In this document: positions 19,702-29,223 of the stretch, piece by piece | How positions within the stretch are numbered: the stretch's first letter is position 1 | Layout of the letters: each line of letters begins with the position of its first letter | Origin: a virus | Length of the DNA stretch: 64,000 nt | Strand: one strand, 5' to 3' | IMG/VR virus record: IMGVR_UViG_3300025645_000053 | Coordinates: 1-64,000 of that record | Position numbers and translations under genes: made by a program | Notes under the pieces: generated by a model | Told to the model about the DNA's origin: nothing | The model's input: the letters and a program-made list of their open reading frames with translations, nothing else | Databases searched by the model: none

Positions 19702-20084
19702 TGATGAATCCTTTTGATTATGTAAATTCCATTACGTTAAGCAAACGTAATATTATGGTAACACCAGAGGATGAGAAAGGTTATGCAGCCTTTCTTATCA
19801 ACCGTGGCCTTTCGCAGTTCCAAGATACTATCTTTTATGCAAATGAAATGAATCGGTATCACAAATTGGACAATAAACTGCAGTATCAGTTTCTTATTAA
19901 CATTGTACGGAAACGGAAACGTTTCTCTAAATGGGCCAAGGCTGACACAGCTGATGCTGATATAATTGAAGCAATTAAGATTGTATACAATTATAGTAAT
20001 GATAAGGCTAGACAAGTTGTCGGACTTTTATCAAAAGATCAAAAGTCCGCGCTGCTCGAAAAAATACATAAGGGTGGAACTTAA
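19701..20084 (+). CDS. 62: Clamp loader small subunit gp62
   Basis: NPFDYVNSI, FYANEMN, RKRKRFSKWAK, YNYSNDKA. Confidence 0.92.
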   Translation: MMNPFDYVNSITLSKRNIMVTPEDEKGYAAFLINRGLSQFQDTIFYANEMNRYHKLDNKLQYQFLINIVRKRKRFSKWAKADTADADIIEAIKIVYNYSNDKARQVVGLLSKDQKSALLEKIHKGGT

Positions 20085-20617
20085 CGGTGCTTACACTTTG
20101 CTCCGTGATAGCGCGCGTATGTTGCAAGTTGAACACTTTCGCCGCAATGTTCACAATTGATTCTAGGACGGTTCAGCGCGGCTTGAGATTGCAGCTTTTT
20201 AGTTTCGTCTGTAGTGATAGCCCCTAATCTTGATCCGTCCTTATTAGCATACAGTTCTTTCATGGATTTTTTGAATTTGTTAGATCTTTCATCAGTCCAT
20301 TTAGGAAGAGTCATGCCTTTAGTTGGCGTCGGATTTGTTTTCATTCTAGCAGCGACACGTTTTTTAACATGTTCTTTAGTTTGCTTCTTTCCAGTTAAAG
20401 CTGCAGAAACGGCTAGTCTTCTAGCTTCTTCGCCGCTTATTTGGCCTGAAAGAGCTTTATACGCAATTAGGTCTTGCAAACGATTATGCTTTTCGTATAG
20501 AGCAAGGTGGGCAAGAGCGTGTTGTTCTACAGTCAGTTTTATTAAATTTGACTGATCGTCGCTACCGCCAGCATGGCGCGGGATGATGTGATGTTTGTGA
20601 TATATAGTATTAGGCAT
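20081..20617 (-). mobile_element. Free-standing HNH homing endonuclease (Mob-like, NUMOD3-type tail)
   Basis: HHIIPRHAGGSDDQSNLIKLTVEQHALAH; C-terminal CEHC...YHGAKC; minus-strand TATAAATA at 20692-20685. Confidence 0.9.
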
Positions 20618-21445: not shown

Positions 21446-21901
21446 ATGTCGAACTACGATAAGTATGATTACAGCACACAAAACCCTTTAGAAAAAATCT
21501 TTTACGATTCAGGATTCCCTTCCAATCTTTTTGATACTTTGCTATCAAAAGTAGGTAATACCACAACTTCATTCCCACCTTATGACATTATAAGCGAAAT
21601 AAATGAAGAAGACAAATCGTATCGCGTGATTATTTCTATGGCGTTAGCTGGCTTCGATAAAGATGAAATTAATATCGAGCAAAAGTCGAATATCTTAACA
21701 ATTTCTTCTGAAGGTAAATCGAAGAAGAAAGACGTAAAATACATTCAGAAAGGTATTTCTAAAAGAGCCTTTGAAAATAAATTTAAGCTATCACAATACG
21801 CTGTAATTGCTAATGCAACTATGGAAAATGGTATGCTTGAAGTATTAATTGACTTTGAAATTCCTGAAGAACTGAAAGCAAACAAAATTCAAATTAAATA
21901 A
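21446..21901 (+). CDS. hsp20: Small heat-shock protein Hsp20
   Basis: FPPYDI, ALAGF, KGISKRAF, ENGML, IPEE alpha-crystallin motifs. Confidence 0.92.
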   Translation: MSNYDKYDYSTQNPLEKIFYDSGFPSNLFDTLLSKVGNTTTSFPPYDIISEINEEDKSYRVIISMALAGFDKDEINIEQKSNILTISSEGKSKKKDVKYIQKGISKRAFENKFKLSQYAVIANATMENGMLEVLIDFEIPEELKANKIQIK

Positions 21902-21916
21902 ATTATAGGAGTTATT

Positions 21917-22207
21917 ATGTCAGATAATGTACATGTTTTAAGATTGATCACAGGTGAAGAATTAATTGCAGTAGTTGAGTCCTTTGATGGTACTGTCTAT
22001 AAGATTAATAATGTTGCGGTATTAATACCTACACAAGATAACTCTTTAGGACTAGCTCCCTTTATGGCTTACTGTGAAGATGGTCCCCTTGAATTGCGAG
22101 GGTCAGACGTCATGTTTACACGTACACCAGTCGAAGGTTTGGCAAAACAACACGGTAATATGTTCGGTAAAATAGTAACTCCTTCTAAGAAAATTATATT
22201 GGGTTAA
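21917..22207 (+). CDS. Conserved hypothetical protein (Sm-like)
   Basis: VLRLITGEELIA; C-terminal IVTPSKKIIL. Confidence 0.7.
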   Translation: MSDNVHVLRLITGEELIAVVESFDGTVYKINNVAVLIPTQDNSLGLAPFMAYCEDGPLELRGSDVMFTRTPVEGLAKQHGNMFGKIVTPSKKIILG

Positions 22208-22214
22208 ATTTAAG

Positions 22215-22250
22215 AAAGGGTATCATTTCTATTGACATGATACCCTTTTT
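22215..22250 (+). terminator. Terminator hairpin overlapping the -35 of the gp43A promoter
   Basis: AAAGGGTATCAT...ATGATACCCTTTTT with TTGACA inside and TATAAT downstream. Confidence 0.7.
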
Positions 22251-22290
22251 GTTATATAATAGTATTTGATTTTTACAATGGAGTACCACC

Positions 22291-23286
22291 TTGACTGAAT
22301 TCTATACCTCCGTCGCCCGCTACGGCAATTCGCTTTTATATCGTGGATACAAAGGCAAGCATAAAGTACGCGAAAAGATAAAGTTCAAACCTACCTTATA
22401 CCTCAAAGATAACGAAAGTGAAACAAAAGCACTTGATGGCGTTTCAGTTTCTCCAATGCAATACTCTTCAATGCGCGATGCAAAAGAATTTATTGAGCAA
22501 TACAAAGATGTGCCTAACTTTGAAATATACGGCAATCGTAATTACATAGTTCAATACATTCAAGAAAAGTTCCCTGGTAATATTGCGTTTGATATGGACA
22601 ATGTTAATGTTGCGGCTATTGACATTGAAGTTGTTGCTGATGAGTTTCCACATGCCGAACAGGCACTATATCCTATTGTTTCAATTGCAATGATGTCTAC
22701 TCAAGATAGCATGCGACGTGTATGGGGATTACCTAACTATAAAAATACTCGTGATGATGTAATTTATTATCACTGTAAGAACGAAGCCGAACTGTTAATG
22801 AAGTTCATAACACATTGGTCAAATCCTGAATATACTCCAGATATCGTTACAGGCTGGAATACTCGATTCTTTGATACACCTTATATTATCAATCGACTTG
22901 CTAAAACTTTAGGTATTGAATTTGCCAAAAAGTATTCTCCATGGGGTTTGATAAATGAACGCATGGTTACGGTTAACGGTCAAAAGCAACAGAGCTACGA
23001 AGTAACAGGATTGCCTGAACTTGATTACATGGAGTTATTTAAGAAGTTTACTATTAATACATTAGGCGCTCAAGAATCATATAAACTTGATCATATTGCA
23101 AACGTTGTGCTTGGCGATCGGAAATTGTCATACGAAGAAAACACACAGATGTATGCTTTACTACGCGACGCCGAAGGCTGTAACCCTGACGAGAAACTGA
23201 CCAAGCTAGAAGACATGGACGAGTTACAACGCACGTGTCTTCTTCGTGATCGTGTACGCGCCTTACGCTTGTCTCGAGGGGTTTAG
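22291..23286 (+). CDS. 43: DNA polymerase gp43 subunit A (N-terminal domain, Exo I/II)
   Basis: DIE (Exo I), GWNTRFFD (Exo II), ESYKLDHIA; ends in a non-homologous helical tail. Confidence 0.93.
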   Translation: MTEFYTSVARYGNSLLYRGYKGKHKVREKIKFKPTLYLKDNESETKALDGVSVSPMQYSSMRDAKEFIEQYKDVPNFEIYGNRNYIVQYIQEKFPGNIAFDMDNVNVAAIDIEVVADEFPHAEQALYPIVSIAMMSTQDSMRRVWGLPNYKNTRDDVIYYHCKNEAELLMKFITHWSNPEYTPDIVTGWNTRFFDTPYIINRLAKTLGIEFAKKYSPWGLINERMVTVNGQKQQSYEVTGLPELDYMELFKKFTINTLGAQESYKLDHIANVVLGDRKLSYEENTQMYALLRDAEGCNPDEKLTKLEDMDELQRTCLLRDRVRALRLSRGV

Positions 23287-23976
23287 TTTGCAATTATCAT
23301 CATGCCAGCGCTTTAAGTTAGAATATGTGGTTACTACATTACAGTGTTGACATTTTCGAGTTTTATGATTTATTTTCCCACGGGCGATTTCATCACTAAA
23401 TTGGCCAAGGCTGTCGATATAAATGCCCCACCCTTTTGCCGACATCTTGACTGCGCCTTTATACGCTCTTATAAGCGAATTAATATCGTGTTGGCTAATC
23501 ACGTCGGCATGCTTGGTATGGAAGTCCATACGGGTCCCTTTAAAGACGGTTGTACTGTTTTTAAACGTGTATGTGTGATCGTCATAGTTGGGATTAGCCT
23601 TTCCGCTAGAGCGTATAGAACACGCTTCTATAAACCGGCGTTTATGCGCTTCATAAATAGTTGATGAGAATTTTAGACCTAGCCGTTGGGTATATCCAAA
23701 GTGAAAAAACGTATGAAGCGCGAATGTCATTTTACATGTGTCTTTGCCAATAGTGAATTTAGTTAATAGCAAATGGGCGATATAATGCTCTCTAAATGTA
23801 TATGGGAGCATTATTGTTCCACCAAAACTGTGGGGTAGCACATGATGATTTTCATGCTCAGCCGACGTATAAGTACGTTGTTCACTGACTATTTTATTTG
23901 CTAATGCTAAATACGCCCGATAATACTTGTTGCATTTAAAGTTATTATAATTTAAAAATTCGTTTACCATTGACAT
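23263..23976 (-). mobile_element. Free-standing HNH homing endonuclease between gp43A and gp43B
   Basis: HENHHVLPHSFGG, FREHYIAHLLL, C-terminal CQHC...RWHDDNC. Confidence 0.88.
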
Positions 23977-24025
23977 TACATCTCTATTAGTTTATAATAC
24001 TATATATAACATTAAGGATCTTACT

Positions 24026-24715
24026 ATGAACATTGATTATTTACTTAGCTCTAATCTAGATAATTTATCTGACGATGAATTGATTGCCTTAGATGCTGAG
24101 CTTACGGCAGAAGCTAATCTGCTCGCCGGATACAAAGGAATTGATTATAATATAGTCGATATTGAGTTAATTCTTCGCATGGATGATAAACTTCAATTGA
24201 TTGGTCTGGCTGCGACGATGGCTTATAGCGCTGGTGTTAATTACGGTGATACATTAGGCACAACTGCTATTTGGGATGCTATCATCTATCGTGATTTGTG
24301 TTCTCGTAACATGGCTGTACCACCTAACAAGCATAAGTTCAAAGATGCGTTTGAAGGCGGCTGGGTTAAAGCTCCTAAGGTTGGTCTACATAATTGGGTA
24401 GTATCATTCGATTTGGCATCGCTTTATCCCCACTTAATAATGCAAGCAAACATATCTCCAGAAACCTTAGTTGAAGGCGATCGTATAGACGGTCTTACAG
24501 TTAATAACTTGTTGGAACGTAAAAGCTTTGAGGTACCAGACGGTCGAGCGTTATGTCCTAATGGAGTTATGTTTGATACCGAAAAGCAAGGTGTCATTCC
24601 TGCGCTAATCAAAACCAAGTATGCCGCTCGTAAACGTATCAAAAAAGAAATGCTTTCAGCGCAACAAGAATTGGTTAACGTCGAGGAGGAAATGAAACGT
24701 CGAGGTATCACTTAA
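24026..24715 (+). CDS. 43: DNA polymerase gp43 subunit B (Exo III, palm motif A, first fingers helix)
   Basis: DYNIVD (Exo III), SFDLASLYP (motif A), NISPET; own TTGACA/TATAAT promoter and SD. Confidence 0.93.
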   Translation: MNIDYLLSSNLDNLSDDELIALDAELTAEANLLAGYKGIDYNIVDIELILRMDDKLQLIGLAATMAYSAGVNYGDTLGTTAIWDAIIYRDLCSRNMAVPPNKHKFKDAFEGGWVKAPKVGLHNWVVSFDLASLYPHLIMQANISPETLVEGDRIDGLTVNNLLERKSFEVPDGRALCPNGVMFDTEKQGVIPALIKTKYAARKRIKKEMLSAQQELVNVEEEMKRRGIT

Positions 24716-24870
24716 TGATACTTCACTTTGACTCATTGTCTAATAGCGATTTCACGGAGTATTTACGCAAAGCAAACGCTTTACATCGGCTTGGTCACTT
24801 TCGACATTTAACACCGCGTGAGTTAGCAAAACATATTTATGATACTGAAATGAAAAATAAATGCGAATAA
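24715..24870 (+). CDS. Small hypothetical protein (51 aa) inside the gp43 locus
   Basis: MILHFDSLSNSDF...KNKCE; TAATG overlap with the gp43B stop. Confidence 0.5.
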   Translation: MILHFDSLSNSDFTEYLRKANALHRLGHFRHLTPRELAKHIYDTEMKNKCE

Positions 24871-24967
24871 CTGCAGTATTAAGAATGTGATATGTATAAA
24901 TAATAATGAACAGAGTGGTATTGGTAGTACCACTCCATCCTCAGACATAACCAACAGGAAATTACTC

Positions 24968-25711
24968 ATGTCCATTACTATTTATCAACACCAGTTAGAC
25001 ACTCATTTAGAAACTGTAATATCATCATTAAAAGCAGGCGAGTCATTACTTCAGCTATGCAAGAAATACAGCATAAACTATCATGCCTTTCGTAAAGTGA
25101 TAAAGCGTGATTATCCAACGTTGTTGTCAATGAAAAAGTCAAAACAAATGCGTGAAAGAATGTCTGCTTCAACTCGGAAGTTCTCACCTGACGAAGAGCA
25201 ACATATAATTGAACGCTACATGGCCGGCGAAAGCGCATATCAGATTCTTAAAGACTATGATGTTGTAGTCAATGTTATATACAGCATTCTAAAAAGAAAC
25301 AACATTCCTAAGAATAACCAGTCCAGTTATTGGACTGATGAAATGCGAGAAAAGCAACGGCAGTTGTGCTATGATGGTATTGTTGGCATACATGCTCAAG
25401 GTGATGGTGCATATCGTTTCACTAAACCTGAGAGAGACTTTGCTAAATGGTGTGAAGATAACACCATTGCATACGAAAGACAATTCCAAATAACAAAAGG
25501 CACTCACCGTTATGATTTCATTATAAGCGATACTAATATCTTAGTAGAAATTGATGGTGAATATTGGCATAGCACACCAGAACAAACCGCAAAGGACCGT
25601 TCGTTTGAGGAATATGCAATTGACAACGGTTACGCCGTTATTCGCTTTACTGATAAAGAAATGCGTAAAACAAAAAATAATTGTTTACAAGCACTTAAAA
25701 GTTTGATATAA
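24968..25711 (+). mobile_element. Free-standing Vsr/DUF559-type homing endonuclease with N-terminal HTH repeats
   Basis: TKPE, YDF, VEIDGEYWH, GYAVIRF; late promoter TATAAATA at 24895. Confidence 0.85.
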
Positions 25712-25739
25712 TAGAACATTACAATATGAGGAATACACT

Positions 25740-27092
25740 ATGGATTTAAAAACACTAAGCGACGATGAGCTGCGAGCTTTACATTATGAATACAGTAAAA
25801 AGTATTCAACGCTTGACAACCAACAAATGAGTATCAAAATCCTAAACTTATTGGGCCTCTAATCAGGAATGATTAGATGAGAATCGGGTGAACTCAGGGA
25901 AGGCTTTAATATGCTAATCCTGAGCCAAGACCTTTATTATGTAAAGGTAAGGTGCAACGACTATCCGAAAGGAGTAGAGATCAAGTGGTCTCGAAGCGCC
26001 CGACAGCCAGACCGGCTGATGATATAGTCTGATCTTATACGAAAGTATAAGCTGGGTTCGTCCCGGGATATGATTAACGCTCGTATCCGAACATCATGAA
26101 TGAACAGTTTGTATGGTGCGATGGGTTCAGCTTACTTCAGATATTTTGATTTGCGAATGGCTGAAGGCATTACATTGTATGGTCAGTTATCAATTCGTTG
26201 GGCTGAGAAATCGTTTAACAACTTCATTAATAAAATCATGGGTACTACCAAATGTGATTATGTTATTGCTGCTGATACTGATTCTAATTATTTAGATTTT
26301 GGCCCACTTGTCGAAAAACTCGGATTAGCAAAAACTAATGATACTAAAGGTATTGTTGATATTATCGACAAAATGTGCAGCGATCAGTTTGAACCAATGA
26401 TTGCTAAATGTTATGACGATCTTGCTAAATACATGCATGCCTATCAGAACAAAATGGTTATGGAACGTGAAGTAATTGCTGATCTTGGTATATGGACTGC
26501 AAAGAAACGTTATATACTAAATGTACATAACTCTGAAGGTGTATCATTTAAAGAACCTAAACTAAAGATCATGGGTATCGAAGCAATTAAATCTTCAACA
26601 CCAGCAATATGTCGTGATGCTTTAAAGAATATCTTCAAGGTTATAATGACTGGTTCTGAGCTTAAAACCCGTAAGGCTATTACTGACTTTCAAGAGTTCT
26701 TTCATGCTCAGCCGCCTGAAGCAGTATCGTTTCCACGTGGAGTTTCTGATATTGTTAAATGGCGCGATGGTGACGGATATAAGTCAAGATGTCCTATACA
26801 TGTACGCGGCGCTATAATGTATAATGTTGGTATTGAGCAGAAGAAACTTAAAAAGTATACTGCAGTTCGTAATGGCGACAAAGTTAAGTTCTGTTACCTT
26901 AAGTTGCCTAATCCCATCAAGGAAAATGTTATTTCGTTTCCTGATTATTTACCGCCTGAGTTAAATTTGAATGCGTATGTTGATTATGATAAGCAATTCA
27001 GTAAAACCTTTATAGATCCAATTGAACCTGTACTTAAGGCTATCGGTTGGTCAGTTGAAGAGCAGTCGAGTTTGGAGGATTTCTTCGGTTAA
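25740..27092 (+). CDS. 43: DNA polymerase gp43 subunit C; spliced join(25740..25843,26099..27092), 365 aa
   Basis: Splicing restores QMSIKIL-MNSLYG (motif B); ADTDS motif C, KKRY, C-terminal clamp-binding SLEDFF. Confidence 0.92.
25844..26098 (+). mobile_element. ORF-less group I intron (255 nt, IA-like with P7.1/P7.2)
   Basis: P1 CCU|AA/UUGGG with U-G at the splice site; P3 UCGGGUG/CGCCCGA; P4 CUCAGG/CCUGAG; P7 GACUA/UAGUC; P9 GAAA hairpin; terminal G 26098. Confidence 0.93.
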
Positions 27093-27196
27093 GGTATATC
27101 CATATATCAAACAGTTCTATAAAAAACTATATACATTAGTCGAACTGTTTGATATAATAGTACCATAAATTGATAACAACCTAACGGAAATACATT

Positions 27197-27415
27197 ATGA
27201 CTATACTTGCTAAAGCTCAAAGCCCAAAAATCGAAATAAACCTAGACGGTCCTGACGGCAATGCTTATTGTCTATTAAGCTGCGCTAGATACTTATGTCA
27301 GAAATACGCTCTTGACTATGATGCAATACACGCTGAATTAACTGCTGGCGACTACGAAGATCTTATTCAAACTTTCGATAAACATTTTGGTAATTATGTG
27401 AATTTATATAGATAA
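27197..27415 (+). CDS. Early hypothetical protein
   Basis: INLDGPDGNAY...GDYEDL..FDKHFG; behind a promoter cassette. Confidence 0.75.
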   Translation: MTILAKAQSPKIEINLDGPDGNAYCLLSCARYLCQKYALDYDAIHAELTAGDYEDLIQTFDKHFGNYVNLYR

Positions 27416-27485
27416 AGTTGTTGACAAGTCAAACCAAAATTGATATAATAGATCTACAAATTGAGTTAAGGAATAAAAATACATT

Positions 27486-27905
27486 ATGGCATTTATCACT
27501 ACTATCGTTACCGAAGATCTTATCGAAAAAACCAAAACATACATCACTGATGTCGTTAACCCACTAGTTGCTTTAGGCAATCATGAAGAAGCAGTTGTAA
27601 CAAAATCATTCTTCGGATTGTTTACTACCACTAAAATGATATCACCATATGCTGAAGACGTAGAGTTTATCATTGAAGATAACGATCTTATTGGCATATT
27701 GTCTTACACTGATCTTGATGAATCTTATACTGTGTATTTTCGAAGCGATGCGCTTGAATTAATCAGAACTATTGCTTCATTTCAAGGCAAAGGTACAATC
27801 GGTTTAAGCGATAAAGAATTCGCGACTTTCAATAGATTCAAGAATACTGACGTTGATTTGTTAGTTCTTGAAGTACAAAACCTTAAGGATTCAATAAATG
27901 CTTAA
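27486..27905 (+). CDS. Early hypothetical protein
   Basis: ORF behind a promoter cassette. Confidence 0.7.
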   Translation: MAFITTIVTEDLIEKTKTYITDVVNPLVALGNHEEAVVTKSFFGLFTTTKMISPYAEDVEFIIEDNDLIGILSYTDLDESYTVYFRSDALELIRTIASFQGKGTIGLSDKEFATFNRFKNTDVDLLVLEVQNLKDSINA

Positions 27906-29223
27906 TCTTGATAATGTAGTTAAAACCATAAAGGCTCTTGAGTCGACAACAAAGCGTCTTGAAAAAGAAGCGATATTGACAAAGGTTTTGTCTTCGACTG
28001 AGCCTTGGGCTGAAGTATTCATTGACGGTTTTAAAGCTGCGCTTGATACATATACGACATATGGTGTCAAAAAGCTGCCTTATGGTAAAGACGGTAAAAG
28101 TTGCGAAAGCACTTATTCTCGGTTTTGTGCTGTTGCTCGCAATCTGAAAAATCGTGAATTGACTGGTCATAATGCACTTGACGCGCTTGATGTATTTGCT
28201 AATACTCAATGCTCAGAATATCATTGGGTCGGTTTCTTTAGACGGATTCTTTCACGTGACATGCGCTGCGGAGTCAATGTATCGACATGGAATAACGTTG
28301 CAAAGAAAGCTAATAAAGATGCTATGATTCCAGTATTTAGTTGTCAACTTGCAAAGGACGGCGCTAAAGAAAAAGCTATCACTGGTACTAAACTTGTTGA
28401 AGTAAAACTTGATGGTGTACGTGTTATCACTATTGTTCGCCCGGATAGAACAGAAATGTATAGTCGGAACGGAAAACGTCTTGATAACTTTGTTAAGGTT
28501 CGCGAATGGTTTGAAGCAAAGGTTGCTCCACATATTGCTGAAGCAATGGTATTTGATGGCGAAATTATGTCAAGTTCATTCAATGATTTAATGACTCAAG
28601 TACGTCGTAAGTCTGATGTTCAAACTGATGATGCAGTTCTTCATGTATTCGATTGTTTACCGCTTGAAGACTTCAAAACTGGTTTTTATCCCAGGAGTAA
28701 TATTGTTCGTAAAGAAACACTGACCACTTATGCTGATTTCTTTAACGATAGAATTATTCGTGCTTGCTCTCATAAAGTTGTCGACTTCGATACTGAAGAA
28801 GGACTTGCATCATTCAAACAATTGAATAAAGAAGCGATTGATGGCGGATACGAAGGTCTAATGTTAAAAGATCCTCAATCTCCATATACATGCAAACGTA
28901 ATAAAGATTGGTTGAAGATTAAACCATTCATTGAAGTTACGCTTAAAGTTATTGCAATCGAAGAAGGTACTGGAAAGTACGTTGGTTCAACAGGAGCATT
29001 GGTTTGTGAAGGAGTTGACGATGGCGTAGCGATTACTGTAAACGTTGGTTCAGGATTAACTGATGAAATGCGTAAAGACATATGGGCTGACCAATCAAAA
29101 GTCATTGGTCAACTTGTCGAAATAAAAGCAGACGCTGTGTCTCAAAACAGTAATGGAACAAATAGTTTACGGTTCCCACGGTTTAAAACCTTCCGTGGAT
29201 TTGACATTAACGAGAAACTTTGA
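27898..29223 (+). CDS. 30: ATP-dependent DNA ligase gp30
   Basis: KLDGVR, FDGE, YEGLMLK, WLKIK, SLRFPRF. Confidence 0.95.
   Translation: MLNLDNVVKTIKALESTTKRLEKEAILTKVLSSTEPWAEVFIDGFKAALDTYTTYGVKKLPYGKDGKSCESTYSRFCAVARNLKNRELTGHNALDALDVFANTQCSEYHWVGFFRRILSRDMRCGVNVSTWNNVAKKANKDAMIPVFSCQLAKDGAKEKAITGTKLVEVKLDGVRVITIVRPDRTEMYSRNGKRLDNFVKVREWFEAKVAPHIAEAMVFDGEIMSSSFNDLMTQVRRKSDVQTDDAVLHVFDCLPLEDFKTGFYPRSNIVRKETLTTYADFFNDRIIRACSHKVVDFDTEEGLASFKQLNKEAIDGGYEGLMLKDPQSPYTCKRNKDWLKIKPFIEVTLKVIAIEEGTGKYVGSTGALVCEGVDDGVAITVNVGSGLTDEMRKDIWADQSKVIGQLVEIKADAVSQNSNGTNSLRFPRFKTFRGFDINEKL

Follow-up and report, generated by a model that had tools for sequence, protein, structure and literature searches.

In an uncultured marine T4-like myovirus, the gene for the replicative DNA polymerase gp43 is broken into three cistrons, and one of the two breaks lies inside the proofreading exonuclease domain, between the Exo II and Exo III motifs. 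The phage is represented by the IMG/VR record IMGVR_UViG_3300025645_000053, a contig of 77.9 kb with an estimated completeness of about 43%; the window that was analysed consists of its first 64,000 nucleotides. As a rule, a replicative family B polymerase is one chain with an unbroken proofreading fold. In this phage, two polypeptides would contribute to the exonuclease active site and two others to the polymerase active site. The reading favoured here, with a probability of roughly 70%, is that the three polypeptides (A, B and C) would assemble non-covalently into a gp43-type family B replicase by means of peptide tails supplied by a mobile element, and that the break between A and B was made by a mobile cassette encoding those tails.

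An earlier note on this DNA had described gp43 as three cistrons, each with its own promoter and Shine-Dalgarno (SD) sequence, with every catalytic motif intact and a C protein of 365 aa after splicing; this description was confirmed throughout. The three plus-strand orfs were found at the expected coordinates (Table 1), and they align in order with gp43 of phage RB69: HMMER searches against the PDB placed A on RB69 residues 1-306, residues 37-219 of B on 319-499, and exon 2 of C on 563-901 (E 6e-58). When A, B and C were aligned with gp43 of Syn33 and of C48C1 in a three-way comparison, no native segment was missing. All catalytic motifs of the T4 gp43-type family B polymerases are intact across the three pieces, and the C-terminal clamp-binding peptide is present in exon 2 of C. 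The SD sequences are located 7-8 nt upstream of the respective start codons, and the three promoters match the sigma-70 consensus at 11 or all 12 positions; a shuffled-sequence control gave about 22 weaker sites in the region. The A protein recurs in independent assemblies (cluster P0001, 99% identity, three contigs). The nearest deposited phages are Kyanoviridae-like, namely C48C1 (47.6% identity), Methylophilales phage Melnitz and cyanophages, all of which encode gp43 as one unbroken protein of about 825-843 aa, likewise in an hsp20-gp43 context.

The A/B break is situated about 8 codons upstream of Exo III and has added about 70 residues in total. Unsplit relatives read ...KLSYEEHGNLHTLYKEDYQKFIDYN(I/V)KDVEL at this site; the window's A protein retains the native ...KLSYEENTQMYALLRD and then continues for 38 extra residues, while its B protein begins with about 33 extra residues and then resumes the native ...GYKGIDYNIVDIEL. 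AlphaFold2 predicts a helix in the tail of A (residues 311-328, pLDDT about 70) and another in the head of B (residues 16-36, pLDDT about 76). The tail is conserved in 13 clusters of A-type proteins, where it ends in the pattern ...D(D/E)(L/F)(Q/E)K.C.LRDK(I/L)R.E...RG(I/L)x, and the head is conserved in about 20 clusters. The charges of the two peptides are opposite: the last 20 residues of the A-type tails (n=14) have a mean net charge of +3.9 and are positive in 13 of 14, and the B heads have a mean net charge of -4.3 and are negative in 20 of 21.

The earlier note had also stated that no intron or intein motifs are present at either break, and this was upheld. The halves of split inteins are an N-part of about 100 aa and a C-part of about 35-40 aa. 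A split intein at the A/B break was rejected because the tail, with 38 aa, and the head, with about 33 aa, are too short and are predicted to be helical rather than beta, because the first residue of the tail is variable with no conserved Cys1 or Ser1, and because the head lacks HN followed by a nucleophile (Cys, Ser or Thr). When positions 21500-28000 were compared with Rfam, no RNA family was matched in the A/B gap at E<=1, and the only match anywhere in that interval at the same threshold was the group I intron family RF00028, within motif B. The possibility that the B head arose by duplication of the native sequence before Exo III was also discarded, as the alignments were extension artefacts with few identities.

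The A/B break had seemed unfamiliar from described phages, and it remains so: no account of a gp43 that is broken within its exonuclease domain was found in the searchable literature, and no A-type tail was found among 50,697 GenBank phage records. A search for other exonuclease-domain splits, which the earlier note had suggested, established that the break is not a one-off, and that the note had missed the conserved tails that travel with the endonuclease gene. The same break is present in four further IMG/VR contigs (L005, L008, L167 and L189) and in about 25 protein clusters. A-type proteins were sought by a word-based search limited to proteins of 182-580 aa; among the best 120 matches, which were inspected, were 13 clusters of A-type proteins of 331-346 aa with 39-84% identity. 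B heads were sought with a profile against 1.84 billion representatives; a region-restricted word search for B heads gave no matches. Head-bearing proteins include BC-type proteins of 571-634 aa (P0250, P0256, P0261, P0262, P0277, P0315, P0231, P0210) and B-type proteins of 230-254 aa with their C-terminus at the fingers tip (P0251, P0260, P0274, P0280, P0290). The latter are five further three-piece forms; the exonuclease-domain break repeatedly co-occurs with a fingers-tip break to produce three-piece polymerases. Scans of IMG/VR with an alignment of the endonuclease and with a profile of the fingers-split form (about 495 aa) gave no new split loci.

The four contigs differ in layout. L005 has A, an antisense orthologous orf (88% identity) and then a fused BC, and L008 has a similar layout with only about 41-52% identity. 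In L189, a cyanophage-like gp43 has its break at the identical codon position, and the antisense gene there is a canonical HNH gene. In L167 the tail and head are kept but the endonuclease gene is absent, which indicates that the split form is stable without such a gene; the stop codon of A and the start codon of BC abut as TAAATG (L167:1100-1260), which suggests translational coupling. Apart from these, two head-bearing BC-type proteins (P0271 and P0309) have intein-like ends (...VTEDHS(V/L)I(V/I)...), so some cassette-bearing polymerases may also have an intein in the palm domain. Two other contigs encode gp43 in fragments, L176:834-3350 as 621 and 217 aa abutting at Syn33 position 614/616 and L012:1764-4274 as 76, 495 and 250 aa; either frameshifts or additional split sites may explain them.

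Each gap holds a free-standing endonuclease gene, as had been noted. The gene in the A/B gap, antisense to the polymerase, encodes a Mob-like protein of the HNH family that was identified by its match to PHROG 655; its relatives in T4-like phages carry the annotation of homing endonuclease, and orthologs occupy the same place in the same orientation in L005 and L008 (88% and 52% identity, respectively). The gene is fitted tightly between its neighbours, overlapping the 3′ end of A by 24 nt and having its start codon within the -35 hexamer of the B promoter. The protein has a C-terminal CxxC...H...C zinc motif, and its HNH core keeps HH(V/I)LP..GG and the distal H..AH; in the window, L005 and L008 the core lacks its middle Asn as well as a segment of 4 residues, and no Pfam HNH family matches the window's protein. 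A second free-standing HNH gene of PHROG 655 (positions 20081-20617, minus strand, 178 aa) combines a canonical core, GGSDDQSNL, with the CxxC...H...C motif seen at the C-terminus of the cassette endonuclease, to which it is just 19% identical.

The cassette, comprising tail, antisense HNH gene, promoter and head, looks from its pattern of divergence like a mobile unit. Between the window and L005, the flanking polymerase cores have synonymous divergence (dS) values of 1.39 and 2.77, whereas the values are 0.19-0.23 for the tail, 0.34 for the head and 0.49 for the endonuclease gene. The promoter stretch (23951-24010) is 100% identical, and nucleotide identity is 85-100% over positions 22990-24130, which contain the cassette and the adjacent 180 nt or so of the A core, decaying on both sides to 55-75%. 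Such a gradient is the pattern left by endonuclease-driven gene conversion with co-conversion of the flanks. The distribution is also patchy. In a tree of the N-terminal domain with 111 tips, the 14 A-type sequences do not group together and demand 10 parsimony changes, and several pairs of split and unsplit sisters are found in this tree with support of 0.93-1.00. The split L189 has 76-77% amino acid identity to its close unsplit relatives L198 and L200, and L198 reads ...FYTKGWQKFVEYNIKDVEL around the insertion site. The A/B break is thus recurrent in uncultured marine T4-like phages and has probably been spread by a mobile element.

The cassette runs along the plus strand from a 38-aa basic helical tail that ends in the stop codon of A, through the Mob-like HNH gene on the opposite strand, to a consensus promoter, an SD sequence, the start codon of B and an acidic helical head of about 33 aa. 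According to the mechanism proposed, the endonuclease would cut an unsplit gp43 during co-infection near the conserved sequence that encodes Exo III, and repair would copy the whole cassette, which would convert an intact gene into a functional pair of genes in a single step. Tail and head, being of opposite charge, would hold A and B together, and Exo I and Exo II from A would join Exo III from B in one proofreading site. Cleavage, homing, docking of the tails and enzyme activity are the steps that we infer.

The strongest rival is that the A/B split is ancient and was inherited vertically. On that view the cassette is immobile or has become so, its endonuclease gene has been domesticated or is in decay, and repeated loss by recombination with unsplit alleles explains the patchiness. 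Several observations weigh against the favoured reading, and some of them point this way. The endonucleases of the window and L008 (52% identity) have diverged as much as their polymerase cores (41-51%), which fits long co-descent equally as well as transfer. The degenerate HNH core of the window, L005 and L008 clade, missed by Pfam, indicates that the window's endonuclease may be inactive, and L167 is split without any endonuclease gene. The low dS of the cassette could be due partly to constraints from overlapping features. Two further points bear on the assembled enzyme: as the contig covers only about 43% of the genome, a second intact polymerase is possible, and in the phage Aeh1 ribonucleotide reductase (RNR) the comparable tails reportedly serve dimerisation of the heterodimers rather than binding of the a and b fragments to each other (PMC3045599), so the tails' role here may differ from simple docking. 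Long vertical descent with occasional exchange therefore has to be taken seriously as a rival, and is nevertheless judged unlikely: cassette dS is 3-10 times below that of the flanks, with an identity gradient centred on the cassette; the tree demands 10 state changes; a different, canonical HNH gene occupies the same site in L189, whose relatives at 76-77% identity are unsplit; and the ratio of nonsynonymous to synonymous divergence (omega) of 0.125 indicates that the endonuclease orf is maintained.

That the pieces form a working proofreading enzyme is indicated by selection. Between the window and L005, omega is 0.07 in the A core and 0.06 in the B core, and remains low in the A tail (0.19) and the B head (0.16). 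The Exo I and Exo II residues D111, E113, N190 and D195 are invariant in 14 A-type proteins, and Y41, D45 and D129...P135 of Exo III and motif A are invariant in 19 proteins of B or BC type. Invariant catalytic residues together with core omega values of 0.06-0.07 place the pieces under selection as a proofreading enzyme, and selection on proofreading residues located in separate polypeptides implies that the pieces come together; association of A, B and C into one enzyme is accordingly what these patterns predict. The opposite view, that the pieces do not form a proofreading enzyme (the gene being broken, or B and C constituting an exonuclease-deficient polymerase with A as a remnant, or the arrangement being an artefact of assembly), draws on the fact that the record is a metagenome-assembled fragment. 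It is very improbable given the purifying selection on the A core, the invariance of the Exo I, II and III residues across split forms, the presence of the same A protein on three other contigs and of the arrangement in four other IMG/VR contigs, and the lack of a second family B polymerase in the 77.9-kb contig, a record about 43% complete. Scarcely credible is the rejoining of A and B into a fused protein by an intron, trans-splicing or ribosomal bypassing, for which an intron of the self-splicing type 1.8 kb downstream and the bypassing of T4 gene 60 offer precedent, since the gap of 740 nt has no RNA family match at E<=1 and is occupied by an antisense orf that is itself under purifying selection, the protein sequences of tail and head are conserved (omega < 0.2), B has its own 12/12 promoter, SD sequence and ATG, and the TAAATG junction of L167 has nothing to remove and still keeps both tail and head.

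The peptide at the head of B has counterparts at the other break. A hidden Markov model (HMM) of 21 B heads matches the N-termini of fingers-split C-type proteins, with E values of 7e-6 for P0234, 1.4e-4 for exon 1 of the window's C and 3e-4 to 0.03 for P0220, P0165 and P0243, compared with 0.8 or higher for reversed decoys. Judging by these matches, the head motif D-L-S-x-L-S-D-D-E-L-x-x-L common to downstream fragments at both breaks appears to be real. No match was found when an HMM of the A tails was compared with the tails of fingers-split proteins (best E 5), and the '...RG-hydrophobic' ending common to tails has no statistical support. The heads therefore share a motif and the tails do not, and the idea that the same pair of peptides is present at both breaks was only half supported. 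Comparison with the fused fingers tip of L005 indicates that the tail of B and the head of C are mostly native, only about 8-9 residues (MDLKTLSD) being extra in the window. It is possible that the 5′ end encoding the head was transferred from the fingers-tip junction to the Exo site. A broader proposal, put forward tentatively and at rather less than even odds, is that a self-contained, mobile gene-splitting module homes into intact gp43 genes just upstream of Exo III, converting them at one stroke into two-subunit enzymes whose proofreading site is composite, and that its head peptide is portable, having moved from the fingers-tip junction. Such a module would consist of an endonuclease gene together with a stop codon, promoter, SD sequence, start codon and charge-complementary docking helices.

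Table 1. Features of the split gp43 region, in coordinates of the window.
Feature	Position	Strand	Remarks
Promoter of A	22232-22260	+	TTGACA-17-TATAAT, 12/12, sigma-70-type (early-like); SD GGAG 22280-22283
gp43 piece A	22291-23286	+	331 aa, TTG start; N-terminal domain, Exo I/II; PF03104 75.8 bits
Exo I DIE	22621-22629	+	in A
Exo II NTRFFD	22858-22875	+	in A
A tail	23170-23283	+	38 aa, AEGCNPDEK...LRDRVRALRLSRGV; basic; none in unsplit homologs
Mob-like HNH-family endonuclease gene, free-standing	23263-23976	-	237 aa; PHROG 655, E 1.6e-18, residues 12-231
Promoter of B	23970-23998	+	TTGACA-17-TATAAT, 12/12; SD AAGGA 24013-24017; belongs to cassette
gp43 piece B	24026-24715	+	229 aa; head, Exo III, motif A, first fingers helix; PF00136 61.8 bits
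B head	24026-24133	+	about 33-36 aa, MNIDYLLSSNLDNLSDDELIALDAELTAEANLLAGY; acidic; none in unsplit homologs
Exo III YNIVD	24146-24160	+	in B
Motif A DLASLYP	24410-24430	+	in B
51-aa orf	24715-24870	+	ATG overlaps B stop (TAATG); no Pfam/PHROG match
HTH + DUF559/Vsr-like (PD-(D/E)xK) endonuclease gene, free-standing	24968-25711	+	PF04480 and PHROG matches
Promoter of C	25684-25712	+	TTTACA-17-TATAAT with TG, 11/12; SD GAGGA 25727-25731
gp43 piece C exon 1	25740-25843	+	34 codons + 2 nt; head MDLKTLSDDELRAL..., motif B Lys (KIL)
Group I intron, no orf	25844-26098	+	255 nt, within motif B
gp43 piece C exon 2	26099-27092	+	NSLYG of motif B, motif C DTDS, KKRY, thumb, clamp-binding LEDFFG
Motif B	26103-26117	+	KIL/MNSLYG whole only once spliced
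Motif C DTDS	26274-26285	+	C exon 2
KKRY	26502-26513	+	C exon 2

The B/C break had been assigned to the fingers-tip site known from other T4-like phages, and alignment of the two junctions shows that it coincides with the 43A/43B junction of phage 25. The endonuclease in this gap, from a helix-turn-helix (HTH) and DUF559/Vsr-like family, matches PF04480 (DUF559) with 30.5 bits against a cut-off of 20.6; its N-terminal DNA-binding region has a weak match to HTH_23 and a match to the DNA-binding PHROG 1303. The probable start is the ATG at 24968, which follows AGGAA, and the longest orf begins with GTG at 24887. The 51-aa orf that precedes it may be a remnant, or may act as a small partner to this endonuclease.

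The intron of C matches RF00028 over the whole model (1-253 of 253) at positions 25825-26051 with 98.1 bits (gathering threshold 50; E 4e-25), and is predicted to be self-splicing. Helix P1 is formed by CCU/AA paired with UUGGG, with a U.G pair at the 5′ splice site, so that the 5′ exon ends with U25843; the omega-G is G26098, the last base of the intron. Exon ligation gives the Leu codon cta and ...QQMSIKIL-MNSLYGAMG, as in unsplit homologs, and the motif B lysine would be lost from an unspliced transcript. In L005, B and C are fused and there is no intron; the B/C break and the intron are therefore younger or more labile than the A/B break. When the region was compared with GenBank phages by megablast, just two short matches to the intron core were found: positions 25882-26035 are 80-86% identical over about 100 nt to an Acinetobacter phage gene for a hypothetical protein, and to the same level to a primase/helicase gene in an oyster-associated phage contig. 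Related introns are probably present in other phage replication genes. In the protein database, about 20 clusters in the P0141-P0246 range (329-337 aa) begin with M(A/S)(I/V)K(I/L)(L/M)(L/M)NSLYG and four others (325-332 aa) begin with MNSLYG; from these start sites, breaks or introns at or just upstream of motif B, the window's intron site included, seem to be common in marine gp43.

The B/C half of the arrangement is known biology, a second instance of that of phage 25, in which the two products, gp43A and gp43B, are active and purify together (Petrov, Ratnayaka & Karam 2010, J Mol Biol 395:457, as summarised in PMC2988022). The annotation of phage 25 (NC_008208) consists of 43A, a homing endonuclease gene and a 43B split by a group IA2 intron; in the window, likewise, the fingers tip is broken, a free-standing endonuclease gene occupies the gap and an intron without an orf interrupts motif B downstream. 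The two cases differ in that the window's endonuclease is HTH and DUF559/Vsr-like, whereas that of phage 25 is assigned in the literature to a GIY-YIG or seg-like family, and the sequences have no resemblance. They differ also in that the window's intron precedes MNSLYG, whereas that of phage 25 follows NSLYGAL, 8 codons downstream, and in that the exonuclease domain of phage 25 is unbroken.

Other divided replication enzymes resemble the window in part. Family B polymerases are encoded by separate genes, whose products are assembled or trans-spliced, in Methanothermobacter (PolB1/PolB2) and Nanoarchaeum (split-intein PolB), and group B magroviruses also have a DNA polymerase encoded by separate genes (PMC5434244). 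These archaeal and magroviral splits produce two pieces within the polymerase catalytic domain, have no endonuclease cassette, and in no case fall between Exo II and Exo III. In the 'fractured genes' of marine metagenomes, split inteins flank a free-standing endonuclease gene (Dassa et al. 2009, PMC2677866); as in the window, replication enzymes of marine phages are in two parts with a free-standing endonuclease gene, there GIY-YIG or Vsr-like, in the gap, and cases without inteins were also noted. The window has no intein, and the enzymes named in the passages of that paper that were consulted do not include gp43.

Because it recurs in many uncultured marine phages, the split arrangement probably works. 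It would extend an idea that came from phage Aeh1, that a mobile element can make good the harm done by its insertion if it brings interaction tails with it. To our knowledge that idea rested on a single laboratory case; the system described here is widespread in nature, and its tail and head occur in many sequence variants. The natural split points and short docking peptides could be of use in engineering split polymerases. Where gp43 fragments in marine viromes have lengths near 330, 230 and 365 aa (or near 580 aa), annotators should expect subunits and not pseudogenes.

For the A/B cassette, the best mechanistic analogue is nrdA of Aeh1, where tails that arose on insertion of mobE into the RNR gene are essential for the activity of NrdA-a and NrdA-b (Crona et al. 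2011, PMC3045599). In both phages a free-standing HNH gene of the Mob type splits the gene of an essential enzyme in a catalytic region, the fragments beside it have unique C-terminal and N-terminal tails that are absent from unsplit homologs, and there is neither RNA splicing nor protein splicing at the break; a docking role for tail and head would follow from this likeness. Their conserved complementarity of charge, their omega below 0.2 and their retention in L167 give indirect support to a need for the two peptides. Unlike Aeh1, the enzyme is a polymerase rather than an RNR, the endonuclease gene is antisense, and the same cassette of tail and head is found in many diverged phages, which points to its spread as a unit. 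To a known kind, the endonuclease-fragmented gene with element-derived tails, the A/B half adds a case at a new and unexpected site, within the proofreading fold of a replicase.

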